Made by a program: the position numbers and the translations under genes | Assembly: GCA_963764625.1 (NCBI GenBank) | Contig: CAVXTH010000008.1 | Span: forward strand, 32,001-96,000 | Source of the DNA: Candidatus Krumholzibacteriota bacterium | GTDB taxonomy: Bacteria; Krumholzibacteriota; Krumholzibacteriia; JAJRXK01 | Direction: 5' to 3' | Length of the DNA: 64,000 nucleotides | Notes under the pieces: model-generated | Told to the model about the DNA's origin: nothing | What the model saw: the letters and a program-made list of their open reading frames with translations, nothing else | The model's database searches: none | In this document: positions 32,039 through 44,071 of the stretch, piece after piece | How positions within the stretch are numbered: position 1 is the first letter of the stretch | How the letters are laid out: each line of letters begins with the position of its first letter

Positions 32039-32248
32039 TGAGATCACCTCGATGGACTCCAGGCAGGAATGAATGCGGACCGAGATCGATTCTGACTCGA
32101 TCTCGCAGTCCAAGGAGGATCGGCCATTCACCGCTCTGGGTCAAGGGAGCGAGGTTCGGTGAACCCCGCGCACTGCTCCTTGAAGCGGGCGGCACGCGCG
32201 GCCCGTAGCCAATTGACCCCGAATCACCTCGATGTCACACTCTGTCTC

Positions 32249-34339
32249 ATGCACACCGCCCTCCCCTTGACCTCCGCCTTGCTGTGGATTCGCTTCGCAC
32301 TTGGCGCCGTCGCGCTCGTCTGGCTCCCCGGTCATCTTCTGGCGGGACGGTGGCTGCGCGCGCAGGATGCGCTGAGCCGATGCGTGGTGTCGATCTCGGT
32401 CGGCCTCGTCCTACCTTTCGTGTATTTCGCCCTCCTGGGACGCCTCGGGCTTCCCTTCCGGCCGCTCTATTACCTTCCCGTAGTCCTGATCCTCGGCGGG
32501 CTCTCCTCCCTCTGGTCCACCTACCGGCTTGCGATCGCGAACTGGTCGGAGAATCTCGGGGCGCTGGGCCGCGTGGAGGTCGTGGCGGCATCGAGCGCCG
32601 TGCTCCTTTCCTTTCTGCTTCTTCTCGCCGGATTCTCGCAGATGCCTGCGCCACCCCACATCCTCGATGCTTCGAATCACGCCTGGCTCACGCTGCGGAT
32701 CGTGGAGACGGCCAGTCTGGATGCCGCCAGAATCAACGGAGACTTGGCCGGGAGAGTGGAAGTGGGGTATCTGCCGGGGCTCCACGCATCCGCGGCGCTG
32801 ATCGCGCGCCTCTGCCGCGTCGCCCCCTACGTTTCGGTATGGATGCTGACGCTGCTCCTGTGCGCCATGATTCCCGCCGCCTGGTCGCTCCTCTGGCGAG
32901 GGTGGGGAGTTCCCCCCCTCGCACTTTCCCTGGCACTCCTTCTCTGCGTCGCGAATCCACTGGGGCCGGGCGGCATTCTGGGCTGGGGGGGGTTCGGACA
33001 GATCGCCGGCTTCTTTCTGGTGCCGGTGGGAGCGCTGGCGGTGCGCTCTGTCTGGCGCAAGCCCAGCGTGCCCGCAGGATTGGTGGCGGGGATCTTCCTC
33101 GGGGGTCTGGTCTTCGTACACGCGAGCGAAGTGGGGGTGGCGCTGGGAGCCGCCCTTCTCTGTCTCGACGGCCGCATCCACAAGCATCTTCGCGCCGGGC
33201 TGGTGATGCTGGCAGCGATCCTGGTTGTCTGTGGTCCGGAGGTTTGGCACGTCGCCGCGGACTATCCGCGGACGATCGCGGCCGAGCTCCCGCTGCGCAA
33301 GGAGTTCCTCGATTCGCTCACGCGTCTGTGGCGTGCCGGGGGACACGGTATCGTGTTCCAAGTCCTTTTGCCGGCGGGGTGGATCTTGGGGCTCAGGACC
33401 GCTTGGGCTCGCCGCCTCGCGCTCACCAGTCTCATCCTCGGCGCGTTCTATTTGCTTCTGCAGACCCTGGCCGATCCCTTTACGCGTTTGCTGGCGACTC
33501 CTTTCTACCGCCAGGCCCCTCGCATTCTCTACCTGCAGTTCTACTTTCTGCCTCCCCTTTTGGCCCTACCTCTCACGAAAATCTTGCGCCACGCTCGCGC
33601 GGGTGCGAAGGCAAATGTCGGCTTCATCTTCAAGACTTCGTTCCTGCGCGGTCTGGTCGGCGGCCTGCTTCTGGCTGCGCTCGTCCCCGGACTCACGCGC
33701 GTCCTAGAGAACTATCGTTCCTGCCGTTCGCTCGTTCCCTTCACGGTGGATGACTATCGGCACGCGCAGGCTCTGCATGCCCTGGTGCCCGATGGCGCGA
33801 TGGTGGCCAACCTGTGGGACGACGGGAGCGTGTGGGCCATGCACGTGAGCGAGAGACCTTTCTTGCAACCCTGCGCGTGGCCCCTCATCAGCCCCTCGGG
33901 GAAATCTCTGCACGAGCTGAGCAAGGGTCTAGCGGATGACCCCTGGCCTCAGGAGACGGTGCGTCTGCTGCAACGCCTTCGCATTCACTATCTCTACGTG
34001 AGTGACGGCGTGTGGGGAAAAGGCAGCGGCCTGCGTCGAAAGGATTTCGACGCCGACGCACGCTACCGAATTTTGCTCGCAGGCTCTCAGTTCCACTCTC
34101 TATGCCATTCGTGGCGCGCCGGATCCTCCTTTTTACCCGCCATTCTCCTCTTCCTCGCTCGCCACCGGCGCATTCAGGTTGGCCCGATAACTCTCGTCGA
34201 GGAGCATCGCGACCAGAGCGGCGCCGCCGTTGCTCTCTCCCAATTCCTTGGCCATGGGCACGAAGCGTCGCATGCGCTCCAATTCGAGATTACTGCAGCC
34301 GCGAAGCCTCGACTCGAGCTGCGCGATGAGGCGCTCTGA
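32249..34339 (+). CDS. polytopic membrane protein (DUF6541-like, GT-C-fold-like); true 3' end uncertain
   Basis: More than 10 hydrophobic segments, DASNH and Y.PGLH motifs. The ORF overlaps the helicase by ~200 bp, so a frameshift near 34090 is possible (the alternative frame reads STLYAI). Confidence 0.65.
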   Translation: MHTALPLTSALLWIRFALGAVALVWLPGHLLAGRWLRAQDALSRCVVSISVGLVLPFVYFALLGRLGLPFRPLYYLPVVLILGGLSSLWSTYRLAIANWSENLGALGRVEVVAASSAVLLSFLLLLAGFSQMPAPPHILDASNHAWLTLRIVETASLDAARINGDLAGRVEVGYLPGLHASAALIARLCRVAPYVSVWMLTLLLCAMIPAAWSLLWRGWGVPPLALSLALLLCVANPLGPGGILGWGGFGQIAGFFLVPVGALAVRSVWRKPSVPAGLVAGIFLGGLVFVHASEVGVALGAALLCLDGRIHKHLRAGLVMLAAILVVCGPEVWHVAADYPRTIAAELPLRKEFLDSLTRLWRAGGHGIVFQVLLPAGWILGLRTAWARRLALTSLILGAFYLLLQTLADPFTRLLATPFYRQAPRILYLQFYFLPPLLALPLTKILRHARAGAKANVGFIFKTSFLRGLVGGLLLAALVPGLTRVLENYRSCRSLVPFTVDDYRHAQALHALVPDGAMVANLWDDGSVWAMHVSERPFLQPCAWPLISPSGKSLHELSKGLADDPWPQETVRLLQRLRIHYLYVSDGVWGKGSGLRRKDFDADARYRILLAGSQFHSLCHSWRAGSSFLPAILLFLARHRRIQVGPITLVEEHRDQSGAAVALSQFLGHGHEASHALQFEITAAAKPRLELRDEAL

Positions 34340-37759: not shown

Positions 37760-38011
37760 TCAGCTCTTTAGATCTTCCTCCCGGCGAGTTTCATCGCCGT
37801 TCTCGTAGGAAGCGAGGAGTTGGCGGGCCGCTTCGGCGAAAGGCTCCGGAACGATGAGTCTCATGCCCTCGCCCAGATGCATTTGCGGATACATGCCGCC
37901 GACGTCGTCGTTGAGCAGTCGGCAGGGGATGCCATTGGCGATCAAGAGCCCCTTAGCGATTTCCGCCTGCGGAACCTCCGTGTAGCGAGCGATCTCGACT
38001 TCAGCACTCAT
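37760..38011 (-). CDS. DUF2007-like small protein
   Basis: AEIAKGLL.ANGIPC...RL.VPE...E.ARQLL pattern. Confidence 0.8.
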   Translation of the reverse strand: MSAEVEIARYTEVPQAEIAKGLLIANGIPCRLLNDDVGGMYPQMHLGEGMRLIVPEPFAEAARQLLASYENGDETRREEDLKS

Positions 38012-38069
38012 GATGACACCTCGAGCCCGTGAATGGTCGATCCGCGAGGGTGATACTCTCGCGGCGGTT

Positions 38070-38297
38070 TCAGTGGATCCGCGCTTTGATCAGGTCGATC
38101 ACTTCGTCGCCCTCGGGAAATCTCTCCACTTCGTACTTGGAGAAGATCAACTCGTCATCGAGCTTCACGTCGAAGATGCCGTTGCGCCCCTCGATGAGCT
38201 CGGGCTTGAGCTTGAATTTCTTCTGGATGCGCTCCGCCAAACTGGCGGCATGAGGGAGGTAGTTTCATTGAACGCAATACTGAATGCTGATTTTCAT
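38070..38297 (-). CDS. Rdx/SelT-SelW-SelH family selenoprotein (UGA = Sec at codon 11)
   Basis: Read-through gives MKISIQYCVQUNYLPHAASLAERIQKKFKLKPELIEGRNGIFDVKLDDELIFSKYEVERFPEGDEVIDLIKARIH (75 aa): CxxU, G.FDV, IFSK...RFP. Confidence 0.9.
38227..38251 (-). promoter_or_regulatory. bacterial SECIS-like hairpin
   Basis: CCGCCA-GTT-TGGCGG stem-loop with a G in the apical loop, starting about 16 nt after the in-frame TGA (38265-38267). Confidence 0.7.
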
Positions 38298-38524: not shown

Positions 38525-39421
38525 GTGAGTAGCACCCCTCATTCCGATCCCCCTTCCCCGCCGTCCAGCCAGACGCGGCAGGACACGACACTCTCCTCCG
38601 AGCAGGAGCGTGACGCCTGGCGCAGGGTCTATCCGGTGGGTCGGGAGTTTCTCCCCACCTGGAGCGTGTTGGACGGGCACTACCGCTGTCGTTTCGCGAC
38701 GAATGCCGAGGAACTCGATCGAGTTCTGAGGTTGCGCTACGAAGTCTTCAACCTCGAACTCGGGGAGGGACTGGACGAAAGTCACGCCACCGGGCTCGAC
38801 CGGGATCGCTTCGACGACCACTGCCACCACATGATTGTCGAGGATCTCGACACCATGGCGACCGTGGGAACCTACCGGCTCCAGGTGGCACAGATGGCGA
38901 GCGTGGGGCGCGGTTTCTACACGGCCCAGGAATACGACATGCGATCGTGGCCGGCGGACATCCTGGAGCAAGCAGTGGAGACCGGGCGCGCGTGCATCCA
39001 CAAGGATCATCGCAAGAGCAAAGTCCTCCAGCTTTTGTGGAAGGGACTGGCCGCGTATGCCCTCCACAACCGCCGGCGCTATTTCTTCGGGTGCTGTTCC
39101 CTGACGAGCCAGGATCCGGCCGAAGGCGCTCGGATGCTCGAATACCTGCGTCAACACGGGCATCTGCATCCCGCGATTCGCACCCAAGCCCATCCCGCCT
39201 TTGCCTGTCACGAGGAAAACGAATCGGCGGAGGGCTGGGAGCAGTCGCGGATTCCTCCGCTCTTCCGTACTTATCTGAGGTACGGAGCTCGTATCTGCAG
39301 CCAGCCCGCCCTGGACCGGCAATTCAAGACGATCGATTTTTTGGCCCTGATCGATCTGACCGAGGTGGATCTGGTGAGAGTGCTGCGACTCACTGAAATC
39401 GATCTCGACACCCGGGTATGA
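38525..39421 (+). CDS. OlsB-like N-acyl amino acid synthase (GNAT, Acetyltransf_5-like)
   Basis: LRLRYEVF..ELG, DRDRFDD.CHH, VGTYRL, ETGRACIH..HR, LLWKGL, FGCCSL, PPLFRTYLRYGA.IC..PA.D..F.TID. Confidence 0.88.
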   Translation: MSSTPHSDPPSPPSSQTRQDTTLSSEQERDAWRRVYPVGREFLPTWSVLDGHYRCRFATNAEELDRVLRLRYEVFNLELGEGLDESHATGLDRDRFDDHCHHMIVEDLDTMATVGTYRLQVAQMASVGRGFYTAQEYDMRSWPADILEQAVETGRACIHKDHRKSKVLQLLWKGLAAYALHNRRRYFFGCCSLTSQDPAEGARMLEYLRQHGHLHPAIRTQAHPAFACHEENESAEGWEQSRIPPLFRTYLRYGARICSQPALDRQFKTIDFLALIDLTEVDLVRVLRLTEIDLDTRV

Positions 39422-40188
39422 AGCATCTGCGCGCGATTCTTCGCTTTGTTGGACTCGCTTCGTGGACTCTTTGCGTCTTTGCCGTCTTCTTTGCCTTGCG
39501 CTTCATCTTGATGGCGTGGCAGAGCGCGGTCGTGAAGCTGAAAGTCGTCACTTTCAGAGTCTGGGCCAAGGGAACAGCGGTGATCTGCGGCATGCGGATT
39601 AGCCGGGAGGGCACCCCTCCCAAACCGCCCTTCGTTCTGGTGAGCAACCATCTCAGCTACATGGACATCGTACTCCTGGCCACACAACTGGAAGCCTTTT
39701 TCATATCCAAGGCCGAAGTCGCGCACTGGCCAGGCATTGGTTTTCTCGCCCGCCAGTTGAGCACGATTTTCGTGGATCGCGAGGATCGGGGAGACCTCCA
39801 CCGGGTCCTGGATCTCATCGAGGATGCTCTGCACTCCGGGGTTGGAGTCGTGTTCTTTCCCGAAGGAACGAGCAGCGATGGCTCGGACGTGATGCACTTC
39901 AAGTCCTCACTCTTCGACGTTCCGCTGCGACTGGGATACCCAGTCTATGCCGCCGCCATCCGATACGAAGCCCGCGAGGGCTGGATGCCGGCTTCGCAGT
40001 CCATTTGCTGGTGGGGCGACATGACCTTTCCCGACCATCTCTACCGAATGTTGGGGATGCCCAGCTTCTACGCCCACGTCGTCTTCGGTGAAGGCGTGGC
40101 CCACCGCCAGACCCGGCGAGAGTTCGCCGACGCTCTCCACCTGGCGGTGAAGAAAGGCTTCGCGCCCGCGCAGAGGGTTCGGGGATGA
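39418..40188 (+). CDS. OlsA/PlsC-like acyltransferase
   Basis: NHLSYMD, FISKAEV..WP.IG, FPEGTSSDG, CWWGDM.F..HL; ATGA overlap with the upstream gene. Confidence 0.92.
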   Translation: MKHLRAILRFVGLASWTLCVFAVFFALRFILMAWQSAVVKLKVVTFRVWAKGTAVICGMRISREGTPPKPPFVLVSNHLSYMDIVLLATQLEAFFISKAEVAHWPGIGFLARQLSTIFVDREDRGDLHRVLDLIEDALHSGVGVVFFPEGTSSDGSDVMHFKSSLFDVPLRLGYPVYAAAIRYEAREGWMPASQSICWWGDMTFPDHLYRMLGMPSFYAHVVFGEGVAHRQTRREFADALHLAVKKGFAPAQRVRG

Positions 40189-42809
40189 CGTCCTTCCTCC
40201 GGGGTCATCCAAAGCGCTGGCTTCTTTTGGTCTATCTCTTTCTCCTCCTCACCTCTCATGTCTACCAGTGGCTTTCCCACTCTCGCTTACCGATTCCACC
40301 CAACTGCTCGCAATTTTCGGCCCACGCCGTGAGAGACACGACGCGCCGGGCCGATCGCCCAGTGTGGCTGGTGTACAAGGATCTTTCGCCCGAGAATGGG
40401 GCCACATCGAAGATCCCGGTTCTCCTCCTTCATGGTTCGCCGGGGAGCCTGCGAGACTTTGAAGAGCTGGAGAAGCTGCTAGCCAGGGACCGGCGGGTGA
40501 TTGCACCCAGCTTTCCGGGATTTGGGCGCTCGCAACGAGACGTTCCCGACTATTCCACCCGAGCCGATGCCGACTATTGCCTTCAGCTGCTCGATGGGCT
40601 GGGGATACAGCGCGTCCATCTGGTGGCGTTCTCCATGGGGGGAGGAGTCGCGCTCAATTTCTACGATCGCGCCCCCCGGCGCGCGGCCTCGCTTTCGATG
40701 GTGGGATCGATCGGAGTCCAAGAACTCGAGCTCTTGGGAAACTACGAGCTCAATCACATCATCCATGGAATCCAGCTCGTGTTCCTCTGGGGACTGGAGG
40801 AATTGACGCCGCACTTCGGATGGTTCGACGACAACGTGTTGAGCGTGGCCTACGCCAGGAATTTCTTCGACACCGACCAACGTCCGTTCCGCGGGATCCT
40901 TCGCCGCTTTCAGCCCCCGGTTCTCATCATTCACGCCCGGAACGATTCGCTGGTGCCCTTTGCCGCGGCCCGCGAACATCACCGGCTGGTACCGCAGAGC
41001 GAACTCGACGTCTTTCCGTCCGGGAATCACTTCATTCTGTGGAGCGCGGGTCAACGCATTGCCTCCGACCTGGACCGATTCTTCGACGAGGTCGAAGCCG
41101 GCAAGGCCCTCACCCGCAAGCTCGCCACTCCCGAGCGAATCGCGGCCGCCGCAGAGCCCTTCTCGAAAGTGGAAGTGCAGCCGGCAGAGGGGCTGTCGTT
41201 GTTCATCCTTCTCTTGCTCATTGTGATCGGCACGTTCATCACCGAAGACATCACCTGCATTACCACCGGACTCTTGATCGCTCACGGACGACTGCCGCTG
41301 GCGGCCGGGTTCTCGGCCTGCTTTCTGGGCATCTACCTGGGGGATCAGCTTCTCTATCTCGCGGGTCGAGTACTCGGGCGTTCGGCGGTACACCGCGCAC
41401 CCTGGAAGTGGATCGTCCACGAGGAGGATCTACGTCTGGCGGCAAGCTGGTTCGAGCGCCGGGGCATGATGGTGATCCTTTTGAGCCGCTTCATTCCCGG
41501 CACGAGACTCCCCACCTATCTTTTGGCGGGAGCAGTGCGCGCGCGCTACTGGCTCTTCGCTCTCTATTTTTTTGTCGCGGTGGCTCTGTGGACCCCATTG
41601 CTGTTGGGACTCACCCTGGTCATCGGCGAACGGGCCACGCCCCTGTGGGCTCAATTCGAGCACAATGCGTTCTGGGTGCTCGTGTTGACCTTGCTGACCG
41701 TGATGGTGTTCCTGCGGGGAGTCATTCCAGCCTTCACCCACCGCGGCCGGCGACTTCTGCTGGGACGTTGGCGTCGTCTTACTCGATCGGAGTTCTGGCC
41801 TCCGTGGGCCATCTATCCGCCGGTCGCGCTCAAGATTCTCGCGCTCAGCGTCCACAGAGGAGGATTCACGCGCGTCACCGCGGTGAATCCGGCCATCCAC
41901 CTGGGTGGTCTGGTGGGAGAGAGCAAGGGGAAGATTCTGCGTGGGCTCTCCCAAAGCGCCGAGTACGTGGCCACCACGCGCGCTCTTTTCCACTCGCTCA
42001 CTCGCGAGCAATTGCTGGAGCAGGCACGCGCGTTCATGGCGGAGGAGGCACTGGACTTCCCCATCGTTCTCAAGCCCGACCGCGGGCAGCGGGGTCGGCA
42101 CGTGTTCATCGTGCGGTCTTTGGAGGAACTCGATGAGAGGCTCACCGAGGCGAGCGCTTCCTCGAAGAGAGAGGATCTCTTGCTCCAGGAGTACGTGGCC
42201 GGACCGGAATACGGGGTGTTCTACCGGCGCTTCCCGGGACAGGAACACGGGGAAGTCCTCTCGATCACCGAAAAGCGAATGCCACGGTTGGACGGGGACG
42301 GCAAGCGCCGGCTCGAGGAACTCATCCTCGATGACAAGAGAGCGGTGTGCATGGCACGGGCGTATATGACCGGTCTCGCCGACCGGCTCTTCGAGGTCAT
42401 TCCCGCCGGGGAATCGATTCAACTCGTCGAGCTGGGATCGCACTGCCGGGGCGCGATCTTCCTCGATGGAGGGCACTTACTGAGCCGCGAGCTGCAAGAG
42501 CGTATCGATCTCATCGCACGGCGCTTCGAGGGCTTCTACTTCGGGCGTTTCGATCTCCGCGCAGAGAGCGAGGAGGCCCTGCGAGAAGGCCGGGATTTCA
42601 AGATCCTCGAGCTCAACGGACTCACGGGGGAAGCCACCCACTTCTATGATCCCCGGTATTCCGTGCTGGAAGCCTGGCGGGTATTGACGCGTCAGTGGGC
42701 CGATGCCTTCGCCATCGCCGATGCGAACATCGCGCGTGGCGCACGACCGGCCAGCCGCGGCATGGTCATCCGTGAGCTGCTTTGGTTCTTGGCACACCGC
42801 CGCGACTAG
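40185..42809 (+). CDS. alpha/beta-hydrolase + DedA/VTT + ATP-grasp fusion protein
   Basis: Hydrolase: HGSPG, AFSMGG, ND.LV, GNH. DedA: ED...ITTG, GD..LY..GR, SRFIPGTR. ATP-grasp: PIVLKPDRGQRG, LQEYV.G.EYGV, GRFD, ILELNG. Confidence 0.85.
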   Translation: MTSFLRGHPKRWLLLVYLFLLLTSHVYQWLSHSRLPIPPNCSQFSAHAVRDTTRRADRPVWLVYKDLSPENGATSKIPVLLLHGSPGSLRDFEELEKLLARDRRVIAPSFPGFGRSQRDVPDYSTRADADYCLQLLDGLGIQRVHLVAFSMGGGVALNFYDRAPRRAASLSMVGSIGVQELELLGNYELNHIIHGIQLVFLWGLEELTPHFGWFDDNVLSVAYARNFFDTDQRPFRGILRRFQPPVLIIHARNDSLVPFAAAREHHRLVPQSELDVFPSGNHFILWSAGQRIASDLDRFFDEVEAGKALTRKLATPERIAAAAEPFSKVEVQPAEGLSLFILLLLIVIGTFITEDITCITTGLLIAHGRLPLAAGFSACFLGIYLGDQLLYLAGRVLGRSAVHRAPWKWIVHEEDLRLAASWFERRGMMVILLSRFIPGTRLPTYLLAGAVRARYWLFALYFFVAVALWTPLLLGLTLVIGERATPLWAQFEHNAFWVLVLTLLTVMVFLRGVIPAFTHRGRRLLLGRWRRLTRSEFWPPWAIYPPVALKILALSVHRGGFTRVTAVNPAIHLGGLVGESKGKILRGLSQSAEYVATTRALFHSLTREQLLEQARAFMAEEALDFPIVLKPDRGQRGRHVFIVRSLEELDERLTEASASSKREDLLLQEYVAGPEYGVFYRRFPGQEHGEVLSITEKRMPRLDGDGKRRLEELILDDKRAVCMARAYMTGLADRLFEVIPAGESIQLVELGSHCRGAIFLDGGHLLSRELQERIDLIARRFEGFYFGRFDLRAESEEALREGRDFKILELNGLTGEATHFYDPRYSVLEAWRVLTRQWADAFAIADANIARGARPASRGMVIRELLWFLAHRRD

Positions 42810-44071
42810 TGATCCGACGCGAGCGAGCGATCAAAGCCCAACAGAATGATTTCGTTGTCGTCCGCTATGCCCTCTCGTTCGTGTCGACCGACGCTTTGGG
42901 GAAAGTTGTTGTCGTTGCACACGGCCAGAGTGTGATCATCGATCTTGGCGATTCCTTCGAGCGTGATGAAGGGCATGGCGAGAGTGCCATCGATCCGACT
43001 CCCCTCGACCCCGGCCGCGATCTCCATGGGGTCGGGAATGCGCAAGAGATCCGCCAGCTCGCTCTTGCGCAGGATGCCACGCGTCTTTTGGTCGAGATGT
43101 ACGAGGTAGATCTTCTTGAACCGCGCGGCCGATCCCTGCTCGTTGTCCCGCTCGAGAACCACCACGATGTTTGGGGCGATCACTGCCAGCGCTCCGATGT
43201 AGTGGCCGTGTTCTGACTGGAGGGGATAGTATTCAAACGGCGGATCCCCCACGAACTTCTCCTCGGCAGGATCGAAGCGGTAGAGTCGTAGAGTTCCCGG
43301 AGGATCATTCGCCGCGGTTTTCTCGAGCAGACCGTAGAGCACCTTGCCATCGGGGGAACCGCCCAATCCTTCGAAGCCTCCACTCGAAGGATGGTTGGCC
43401 GCATCTCCCTTCAAGAATGGGTTCTCCGGAGCTGTCACCCCCGGAGTCGGGACCGGAGCCGAGAGGAGCTCGCCCTTAGCATCCAGGTGCAAAAGAAAAG
43501 GCCCGAACTCATCGCCGACCCAGAAGCTACCGTCGGGTACCGCCACCAGCCCCTCCGGGTCGAAGTCGGCTCCGGTGAGCAAACGTCGAGCTTTGATCCG
43601 CGAATCGACGGGGTCGCTCGTTCCGGGGTAGGTCTCTCTCTCGGCAACCAACTCGAATCCGGCACGGCGGTGGGGATCGCTCAGTTCGATGACTTCCTCC
43701 ACCGAGATCGTGCCGTTCTCAAAATCCGGTCGCACATGGTAGAGCGCCAAGACGAAATCCACCGAATTCTCGCGGGTTCCAAAGCCGTTGTCGCTGAGAG
43801 CCCAGAATCCGCCTTGGGGAGCGATCTCGAGGTCCGAGAAACCCTGGACCGGCTGCTTGTCGACAAAGGGTGTGGTGATTTTGTTCTGGGAGGGGATCTT
43901 TCGCCCGCTCGTCGGGCCATCACGAAATGTGCTCGCATTCAGTACTGCACGCCCGGCCAAATGATAGGGCGGCACTTGGCCGGCGCCTTCCGGCTGGGCC
44001 TCACTCGTAGCTCTACAAAGGCTCAAAGCCGACAGGACAAGCAGAAGAACTGAAGACCGCTGCAACCGCAC
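42806..44071 (-). CDS. secreted 'esterase-like activity of phytase' family protein
   Basis: QPVQGFS, LSDNGFG, LTGADFDPE, GDEFGP, SGGFEG, ERDN, NDNNFP. Confidence 0.88.
   Translation of the reverse strand: MRLQRSSVLLLVLSALSLCRATSEAQPEGAGQVPPYHLAGRAVLNASTFRDGPTSGRKIPSQNKITTPFVDKQPVQGFSDLEIAPQGGFWALSDNGFGTRENSVDFVLALYHVRPDFENGTISVEEVIELSDPHRRAGFELVAERETYPGTSDPVDSRIKARRLLTGADFDPEGLVAVPDGSFWVGDEFGPFLLHLDAKGELLSAPVPTPGVTAPENPFLKGDAANHPSSGGFEGLGGSPDGKVLYGLLEKTAANDPPGTLRLYRFDPAEEKFVGDPPFEYYPLQSEHGHYIGALAVIAPNIVVVLERDNEQGSAARFKKIYLVHLDQKTRGILRKSELADLLRIPDPMEIAAGVEGSRIDGTLAMPFITLEGIAKIDDHTLAVCNDNNFPQSVGRHEREGIADDNEIILLGFDRSLASDH

Follow-up and report, generated by a model that had tools for sequence, protein, structure and literature searches.

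What is the job of a membrane protein that joins an alpha/beta-hydrolase, a DedA/VTT domain and an ATP-grasp ligase in one chain and is encoded directly behind a pair of aminolipid-type acyltransferase genes? The locus that raises this question lies in a stretch of 64,000 nucleotides from a Candidatus Krumholzibacteriota bacterium (contig CAVXTH010000008.1, positions 32,001 to 96,000 of the forward strand), here called the window, whose own numbering is used throughout. Three genes follow each other on the forward strand: gene 1 (38525..39421; 298 aa, GTG start) encodes an OlsB-like N-acyltransferase of the GNAT type (PF13444), gene 2 (39418..40188; 256 aa) an OlsA-like O-acyltransferase (PF01553), and gene 3 (40185..42809) the 874-aa fusion, which begins with an N-terminal anchor. 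Direct sequence reading finds ATGA stop/start overlaps at 39418..39421, between genes 1 and 2, and at 40185..40188, between genes 2 and 3; all the open reading frames and both overlaps of the three coupled genes reported in an earlier annotation, the original prediction, were thus recovered at the same positions. We class the locus with aminolipid synthesis: an undescribed module for tailoring accompanies a pair resembling OlsBA, and the fusion belongs to an envelope module that is widespread, likewise undescribed, and appended to a pathway of a known kind.

As for function, we give roughly even chances to one account, in which the ligase would amidate the head group of an aminolipid, DedA would flip the product, and the hydrolase would trim it or else re-acylate or transfer it. 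The account is based on the domains, the intact catalytic residues, the predicted topology, the gene linkage and one co-loss event. Genes 1 and 2 would N- and O-acylate an amino acid, ornithine or another, by chemistry that is established for their families, and the operon as a whole would make, and then tailor, a phosphorus-free acyloxyacyl aminolipid. ATP-grasp enzymes couple a phosphorylated carboxylate to an amine; the membrane-tethered cytoplasmic ligase would convert a carboxylate to an acyl-phosphate and link this to an amine. The carboxylate would most likely be the lipid's free alpha-carboxyl, to which a second amino acid or amine is added, an extension of the kind found in tauro-ornithine or Gly-Ser lipids. 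The DedA domain, judging from PetA, UptA and the DedA fusions to lipid enzymes, may carry the product to the outer leaflet, and the extracytoplasmic serine hydrolase could remove or transfer an acyl chain or the added group, setting the amount at the surface; this last step is the weakest of the scheme.

The acyltransferase pair is recognizable but divergent. Gene 1 matches PF13444 at 105.4 bits (cut-off 22.4) and is the only PF13444 gene found in its genome; gene 2 matches PF01553 at 85.5 bits (cut-off 23), adjoins olsB and keeps both the NHxxxxD and FPEGT motifs intact (NHLSYMD and FFPEGT). The top NCBIfam models for the two genes are OlsB and OlsA, but the label "-like" is proper since the scores are well under the equivalog cut-offs: 131.4 against 350 and 131.1 against 320 for gene 1, and 142.5 and 130.9, both against 300, for gene 2. 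The cut-offs for OlsF (75.7 against 620) and GlsB (18.4 against 300) are not reached either, and the architecture is not that of the bifunctional OlsF, the N- and O-acyltransferases being two separate genes in the window. The identity of gene 1 to the Sinorhizobium (S. meliloti) match is 27.6%, and a sequence search for solved-structure relatives of gene 1 found none. The start of gene 1 is uncertain because the first ~35 residues, rich in proline and serine, fail to align to one of the two same-genus orthologues. Papers are cited here by PMC number from parts of their text, and statements about their content extend to those parts. The OlsB and OlsA families make acyloxyacyl aminolipids (PMC11631085), and by one estimate aminolipid synthases are present in about half of the bacteria that have been sequenced (PMC12971839). 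Adjacent PF13444 and PF01553 genes are what the window shares with the OlsB/OlsA ornithine-lipid pathway and its GluB, GlsB/GlsA and OlsF relatives; the difference is the coupling to a ligase-DedA-hydrolase gene, of which the consulted parts of PMC11631085 and PMC12971839 make no mention.

The fusion of three domains claimed for gene 3 was borne out by Pfam and fold comparison. Following an anchor helix (residues ~13-30; 40221..40274) that is preceded by a basic tail and predicted to have its N-terminus inside, the hydrolase domain (residues ~42-323; 40308..41153), predicted extracytoplasmic and bearing an HGSP oxyanion motif, matches Abhydrolase_1 (PF00561) at 97.8 (cut-off 25.8), and the membrane domain (residues ~336-516; 41190..41732) matches VTT/DedA (PF09335) at 59.8 (cut-off 33.9). 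The C-terminal domain (residues 525-874; 41757..42806), predicted cytoplasmic and starting with a hydrophobic or amphipathic helix, reaches only 16.3 against Pfam RimK, under the cut-off of 21, and is confirmed as ATP-grasp, despite this weak score, at the level of predicted structure. The model of full gene 3 has a mean pLDDT of 89.4 and that of the ligase 96.5; the top Foldseek matches of the latter are GshF (E 1.4e-10) and cyanophycin synthetases (E about 1e-10), and VIA-align returned LysX/ArgX, RimK and CphA2 at Z 17.1-14.4, the best being LysX/ArgX (Z 17.1, rmsd 3.5, 224 aligned). With GshF, cyanophycin synthetase, LysX/ArgX and RimK the ligase shares the fold, the GDG..LEELI insertion region and the K..E-x-N catalytic set; it differs in being membrane-tethered, and identity in the fold matches is at most 19%. 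For the hydrolase domain, Foldseek gave esterases (E about 1e-13) and the Atlas search generic hydrolase clusters only. Two narrower labels were considered: the D-alanine--D-alanine ligase name that some relatives carry in public records is not upheld by Pfam, gene 3 having no Ddl match at E 0.01 and a Vibrio relative scoring 16.3 against 24, and gene 3 stays below the UptA equivalog cut-offs of NCBIfam (48.4 against 250 and 36.8 against 300).

The catalytic residues are strictly kept. Among 8000 scored candidates of 480-1530 aa, 808 matched gene 3, the best 120 at 45-95% identity, and an alignment of the query with 69 of these 120 (n=70) was used for residue conservation. The serine, aspartate and histidine of the hydrolase, already noted as apparently intact in the original prediction, are S150, D254 and H282 and invariant in all 70 proteins, as are E354, D355, D387, R435 and R441 of DedA and K581, K630, D790, E809 and N811 of the ligase. 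The invariant lysines of the ligase presumably bind the nucleotide and the E-x-N motif forms, we assume, the metal site, the usual roles in ATP-grasp enzymes; K630 aligns with the lysine of the cyanophycin synthetase IKP motif. In comparisons with two same-genus genomes, pairwise dN is well under the synonymous difference, itself saturating, for all three domains. DedA proteins have two re-entrant and three transmembrane helices, with the acidic and basic residues at the two re-entrant helix tips (PMC10127716). This published layout, combined with the charge bias, is the reason for predicting the hydrolase outside and the ligase in the cytoplasm: following the positive-inside rule, with hydropathy and Lys/Arg density taken across the alignment, the segments predicted inside have densities of 0.30 (N-tail), 0.32 (after the last helix) and 0.21 (the loop that leads from the first DedA helix pair to the second re-entrant helix), and those predicted outside 0.08-0.11. 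The two enzymes are thereby predicted on opposite sides of the membrane, in agreement with the scheme first put forward. For the step between them, lipid movement is the role of DedA proteins whose genes lie with lipid genes (PMC10193950). PetA, too, is a DedA protein that shares an operon, pssA-petA-psd, with the genes for making its own lipid substrate (PMC10193950), the difference being that PetA is a single-domain phosphatidylethanolamine transporter with no fused enzymes.

Homologues of the fusion are linked to aminolipid synthase genes. We studied the best 80 of 621 confirmed metagenome loci and six genome loci (86 in total). The counts do not include the locus of the window itself, a fragment, a redundant locus or two loci with paralogous hydrolases. 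Neighbour genes that recur were grouped into clusters, each cluster was identified from a single representative, and the genes were then re-scored with profiles. Thirty-five metagenome loci were informative, with at least 3.5 kb upstream, and ols-like genes were sought within 3.6 kb. An olsB/olsF- or olsA-like gene stands within that distance upstream in 29 of the 35, with olsB- and olsA-like genes both present on the same strand in 24, and when loci are clustered at 70% identity, 22 of the 24 informative clusters have an ols-like neighbour. In a sample of 151 genomes of the phylum, the fusion occurs in seven and PF13444 in eight, and olsB-olsA lies directly upstream of the fusion in all six genomes other than our own; these cases are not independent, as all belong to one family. 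The proposed linkage to olsBA-like genes thus stands, with OlsF-like synthases substituting in other lineages. The operon picture, on the other hand, was incomplete: a DinB-like gene is found in 25 of the 35 informative loci and a TANGO2/NRDE-like gene in 15, the usual order being olsB, olsA, dinB, (nrde), fusion, and both had been overlooked, as had the relatives with no ols neighbours. Since the usual operon also carries these genes, the three-gene form of the window is a reduced version; its own genome (96% complete) yielded no operon-type DinB, NRDE, YHS or HExxH gene.

Further families recur around the fusion. A HExxH protein of about 230-280 aa with a hydrophobic N-terminus, conserved and without a Pfam or NCBIfam match, is encoded downstream in 13 of the 86 loci (e.g., L005:4800-5645), and MsrQ-like ferric reductase and Rieske genes lie upstream in 14 of the 86 (e.g., L102:2130-3940). 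A DoxX-like homologue of the operon-associated family is found elsewhere in the window's own genome (G000:C9:362320-362769).

Where the OlsBA pair is missing, another synthase may take its place. At three Vibrionaceae loci, an OlsF-like gene (407-428 bits, cut-off 620) ends the operon, locus L012 has a divergent OlsF-like gene (396 bits) and L031 probably another, seen as a profile match only; the Variovorax ligase has an OlsB-like gene and LplT (448.6 bits, cut-off 297) behind it. For the second OlsF of V. cholerae, a four-gene operon is named in PMC12186959, whose consulted part does not describe partners of the window type. The Vibrionaceae operons, on chromids (L098-L100), consist of seven genes, VTT, ATP-grasp, DinB-like, NRDE/TANGO2, YHS, DoxX-like and OlsF-like, and nine of ten matches to the Vibrionaceae NRDE in the plasmid collection fall next to the ligase. 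A distant ligase subfamily, in Variovorax (L096:5122-10110) and Komagataeibacter (L095:5043-7981), stands with a methyltransferase and a haem-oxygenase-like diiron protein (PF14518 in Komagataeibacter); this arrangement is a second undescribed cassette.

Two genomes provide natural experiments. G135, of the same genus and 97% complete, keeps the flanking genes, and both olsB and the fusion are gone from there and from elsewhere in the genome. The orphan olsA left behind (L112:8696-9475) is still an open frame, but both catalytic motifs are lost and it has no Pfam match; its identity is 42%, against 62.5% for G018, with flanks equally diverged. G057 (93% complete) has an intact olsBA 1.2 kb from a contig end; no fusion gene begins within these 1.2 kb and the rest of the genome gave no ligase match, for which incompleteness may account. 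As olsBA is there without the ligase, the dependence appears one-way, as expected of a downstream add-on. This bears on the possibility that the ATP-grasp domain makes a soluble dipeptide or isopeptide head group that the OlsB-like enzyme then N-acylates, DedA and hydrolase keeping the same roles. The nearest folds (GshF, LysX/ArgX, Ddl) do act on soluble or protein-bound substrates, the joint loss of olsB and fusion in G135 would fit, and the distance of gene 1 from characterised OlsB (131 bits against cut-offs of 320-350; 27.6% to the S. meliloti match) makes a different acceptor possible. Such a reversed order is nevertheless improbable in our view, a little more so than the two alternatives considered below that concern acylation and repair: G057 retains intact olsBA in the absence of the ligase, the ligase is membrane-tethered even when standalone, and the glycine lipid of Bacteroides is an intermediate of the dipeptide lipid (PMC12971839). 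Amidation of a finished aminolipid is, by comparison, supported by the fold neighbours being amide ligases that extend carboxylates and by the helix retained in standalone ligases.

The ligase family is large and its architecture variable. At E up to 1e-30, the ATP-grasp family comprises 1050 clusters at 50% identity, and the best 150 representatives, some of them contig fragments, divide by profile coverage into 64 with three domains, 55 with DedA and ligase, 24 with the ligase only and seven with hydrolase and ligase; the standalone ligases, of ~373 aa, retain a hydrophobic N-terminal helix. Named members come from Acidobacteriota, Gemmatimonadales, KSB1 and Proteobacteria, and the Atlas clusters list Bacteroidota as well, which we treat as a lead only; the closest titled relative (L001, 78% identity) is labelled Candidatus Krumholzibacteriota. 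A GTDB-wide scan with the single protein gave two loci only, and one of the two, on a 1.9-kb contig in G151 and the sole match among 301 genomes of the G151 phylum, was omitted as a probable stray contig. Five pattern matches in viral sequences yielded no confirmed viral occurrence of the fusion. The claim that all activities sit in one polypeptide is true here, but elsewhere ligase and DedA are separate genes or a two-domain fusion; given these forms and the additional operon genes, the single chain is a lineage-level arrangement of a wider module.

Variable use of the hydrolase matters for a second alternative, in which the ATP-grasp domain N-acylates an amine, of a free amino acid or a lipid side chain, with a fatty acid or other carboxylate, and the hydrolase-fold domain is an outer-leaflet O-acyltransferase, giving a more acylated aminolipid in the manner of OlsH/OlsI. 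ATP-grasp chemistry is silent on which partner is the lipid, and the hydrolase triad is invariant. A third pathway to ornithine lipids uses an alpha/beta-hydrolase, OlsI, as its O-acyltransferase (PMC12493201), and the Singulisphaera pair resembles our fusion in placing an ATP-dependent amide synthetase and an alpha/beta-hydrolase in aminolipid metabolism (PMC12493201). OlsH, however, is a GH3 adenylating enzyme that replaces OlsB, whereas here the ATP-grasp domain coexists with OlsB or OlsF and a DedA domain lies between the two activities. We regard acylation by the fusion as unlikely: it travels with a complete OlsBA or OlsF synthase, beside which a parallel synthase would be redundant, and the module can do without the hydrolase, which is missing from 79 of the best 150 representatives, contig fragments included.

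A third alternative, turnover or salvage, draws on the operon partners. The outer hydrolase would deacylate the aminolipid, DedA return the lyso form and OlsA re-acylate it, as in LplT-Aas repair, with the ligase re-activating the freed pieces and a TANGO2-like Cys amidase cleaving amides. LplT adjoins the ligase and an OlsB-like gene in Variovorax, four loci with no ols genes have an acyl-AMP ligase-like neighbour, NRDE-like partners are common (15/35 loci), and DedA proteins move lipids in both directions (PMC10193950). Repair of this kind leaves no clear job for the ATP-grasp domain, the most constant component of the module, and OlsB homologues use acyl-ACP (PMC11631085); we rate it as no more probable, and no less, than the acylating alternative.

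The accessory genes lead to the remaining alternative, that the ligase loads a group onto a carrier lipid, which DedA flips, and that the hydrolase-fold domain then hands the group to a periplasmic acceptor, or that the ligase-DedA-DinB-NRDE core has a non-aminolipid substrate, either way serving another envelope or thiol process. By their family labels, DinB, the YHS (seleno)protein, DoxX and the ferric reductase/Rieske partners suggest thiol or redox chemistry, and five of the nine distant loci have no ols neighbours. On the other hand, the module is repeatedly associated with three different aminolipid synthase arrangements, olsA decayed following the loss in G135, and no acceptor-related gene recurs among the neighbour families. 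Of all the alternatives, this is the one we consider the most improbable.

Several observations weigh against aminolipid amidation as well. The accessory DinB, YHS, DoxX and ferric-reductase/Rieske genes are left unexplained by the model. In six of the 35 informative loci (2/24 clusters), the 3.6 kb upstream are free of ols-like genes, and four of these ols-less loci adjoin a large acyl-AMP-ligase/GNAT protein. Among the distant ligase loci, of which nine of 29 records were examined with an incomplete table of flanking genes, five (two Azospirillum, Salinivibrio, Paracoccus, Komagataeibacter) have no ols-like gene in the annotated flanks. The co-loss is a single event, in G135, and the linkage counts are softened by partner profiles built from the same loci and by loci that are related to one another. 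Finally, among the best 120 of 1496 matches to an acetic-acid-bacterial homologue, most of them nameless, there is no named Gluconobacter protein, the named ones being Komagataeibacter, Novacetimonas and Gluconacetobacter, which leaves a link of the family to the known taurine lipid conjectural.

The large neighbour is a 1579-aa protein (L032:479-5218; also L015, L018, L027 and L033) with an acyl-AMP ligase-like N-terminal part, a middle part that has no assignment and a C-terminal GNAT, found near fusion genes without ols neighbours; it may N-acylate as well, or its proximity in two clades may be due to chance. At four of the five distant loci without ols genes, a DedA/VTT domain is fused or adjacent. 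The Paracoccus neighbour hydrolase was rejected as an orthologue of the fused one, the two being only 25% identical.

Among known systems, two kinds come close. The first consists of activities without genes: taurine transfer to ornithine lipid is ATP-dependent with its gene unknown (PMC12971839), the gene that ligates serine in the Gly-Ser lipid is unidentified, searches with ATP-grasp Pfam models having given no candidate (PMC12746155), and the serine-ligation route of flavolipin is likewise unknown (PMC10191378). The tauro-ornithine (cerilipin) synthase and the flavolipin serine ligase would share with our ligase the amide extension of an aminolipid carboxyl that we propose here; they differ in being known as activities only, and the missing named Gluconobacter applies to this comparison, too. 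The ligase family of the window scores below such ATP-grasp Pfam cut-offs and would thus be missed by domain searches. The second is the MprF/LpiA synthase-flippase with its outer hydrolase, which we take to be of the AcvB type: cytoplasmic ligation of the head group, flipping in cis and an outer hydrolase are what the two have in common. MprF uses aminoacyl-tRNA and phosphatidylglycerol (PMC11631085), in place of which the fusion has ATP-grasp and probably an aminolipid, and in some fusions DedA replaces the MprF flippase domain (PMC10193950). Membership of gene 3 in the MprF type was ruled out, the Pfam scan finding no MprF-family or tRNA-dependent synthase domain among its matches. We found no description of a hydrolase-DedA-ATP-grasp/aminolipid system in the literature searched, which omits most subscription papers; the consulted part of the Desulfatibacillum lipidome study (PMC11181052) has no link to the module, and the term "flip" is absent from that of a 2026 review (PMC12971839).

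A bolder proposal, possible though we would sooner expect it to fail, is that the missing ligase class for aminolipid head groups is found in the ATP-grasp family, that the fusion is a tRNA-independent counterpart of MprF, and that the TANGO2/NRDE Cys amidase encoded alongside reverses the amide bond. TANGO2 has been proposed to be a Cys Ntn-hydrolase of fatty-acid derivatives, with no substrate known for the human protein (PMC13044924); of 34 bacterial NRDE-like partners, 26 retain MC(T/S) at the N-terminus and 32 the (N/S)RDE motif, and no match combining TANGO2/NRDE with lipid terms was among the literature matches listed. If true, the products of the family would be aminolipids with two residues, of the tauro-ornithine or Gly-Ser kind, the MprF counterpart would unite ligase, flippase and outer hydrolase in one chain, and the TANGO2 family would gain its first pathway context and a candidate substrate class, N-acyl amino acid amides; the thiol/redox-type partners would then point to a sulfur-containing amine. 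The locus, minimal with its three genes, gives a concrete candidate for both ligase and flippase, and the wider operon would set a TANGO2/NRDE-like amidase in a lipid-amide pathway. Even if wrong in detail, the proposal concerns a widespread undescribed envelope module.

An assembly artefact or chance fusion was ruled out by the many matches to gene 3 described above and by a contig from an independent run that covers 39852-43000 without gaps, taking in the last part of gene 2 and the whole of gene 3, with 176 differences in 3149 bases. A horizontal island was ruled out on composition, the G+C of the operon region (0.60-0.62) being like that of the whole window, and an anti-phage system likewise, since at E 1e-5 PADLOC matched none of the three proteins. 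The operon has no recognizable sigma-70-like promoter, and terminator-like matches are near the level of shuffled sequence (7 against a mean of 3.7, sd 2.1). Among the sequencing runs that contain the locus, none listed is an RNA run. The operon is bordered by divergent small genes on the upstream side and a converging gene on the downstream side. The latter, a phytase-like esterase gene (PF13449; 42806-44071, reverse strand), overlaps the operon by four bases and is syntenic across three same-genus genomes. Upstream and divergent, a small Rdx-family (SelW/SelT-like) gene at 38073-38297 on the reverse strand has an in-frame TGA at 38265-38267 within a CxxU motif and, with the TGA read through, matches PF10262 at 68.3 bits (cut-off 22.6), so it probably encodes a selenoprotein. 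Between it and a PhzF-family gene lies a small DUF2007 gene (37763-38044, reverse strand; 35.7 bits, cut-off 25.7), and farther away, at 32159-34339 on the forward strand, a DUF6541 membrane protein of 726 aa is encoded.

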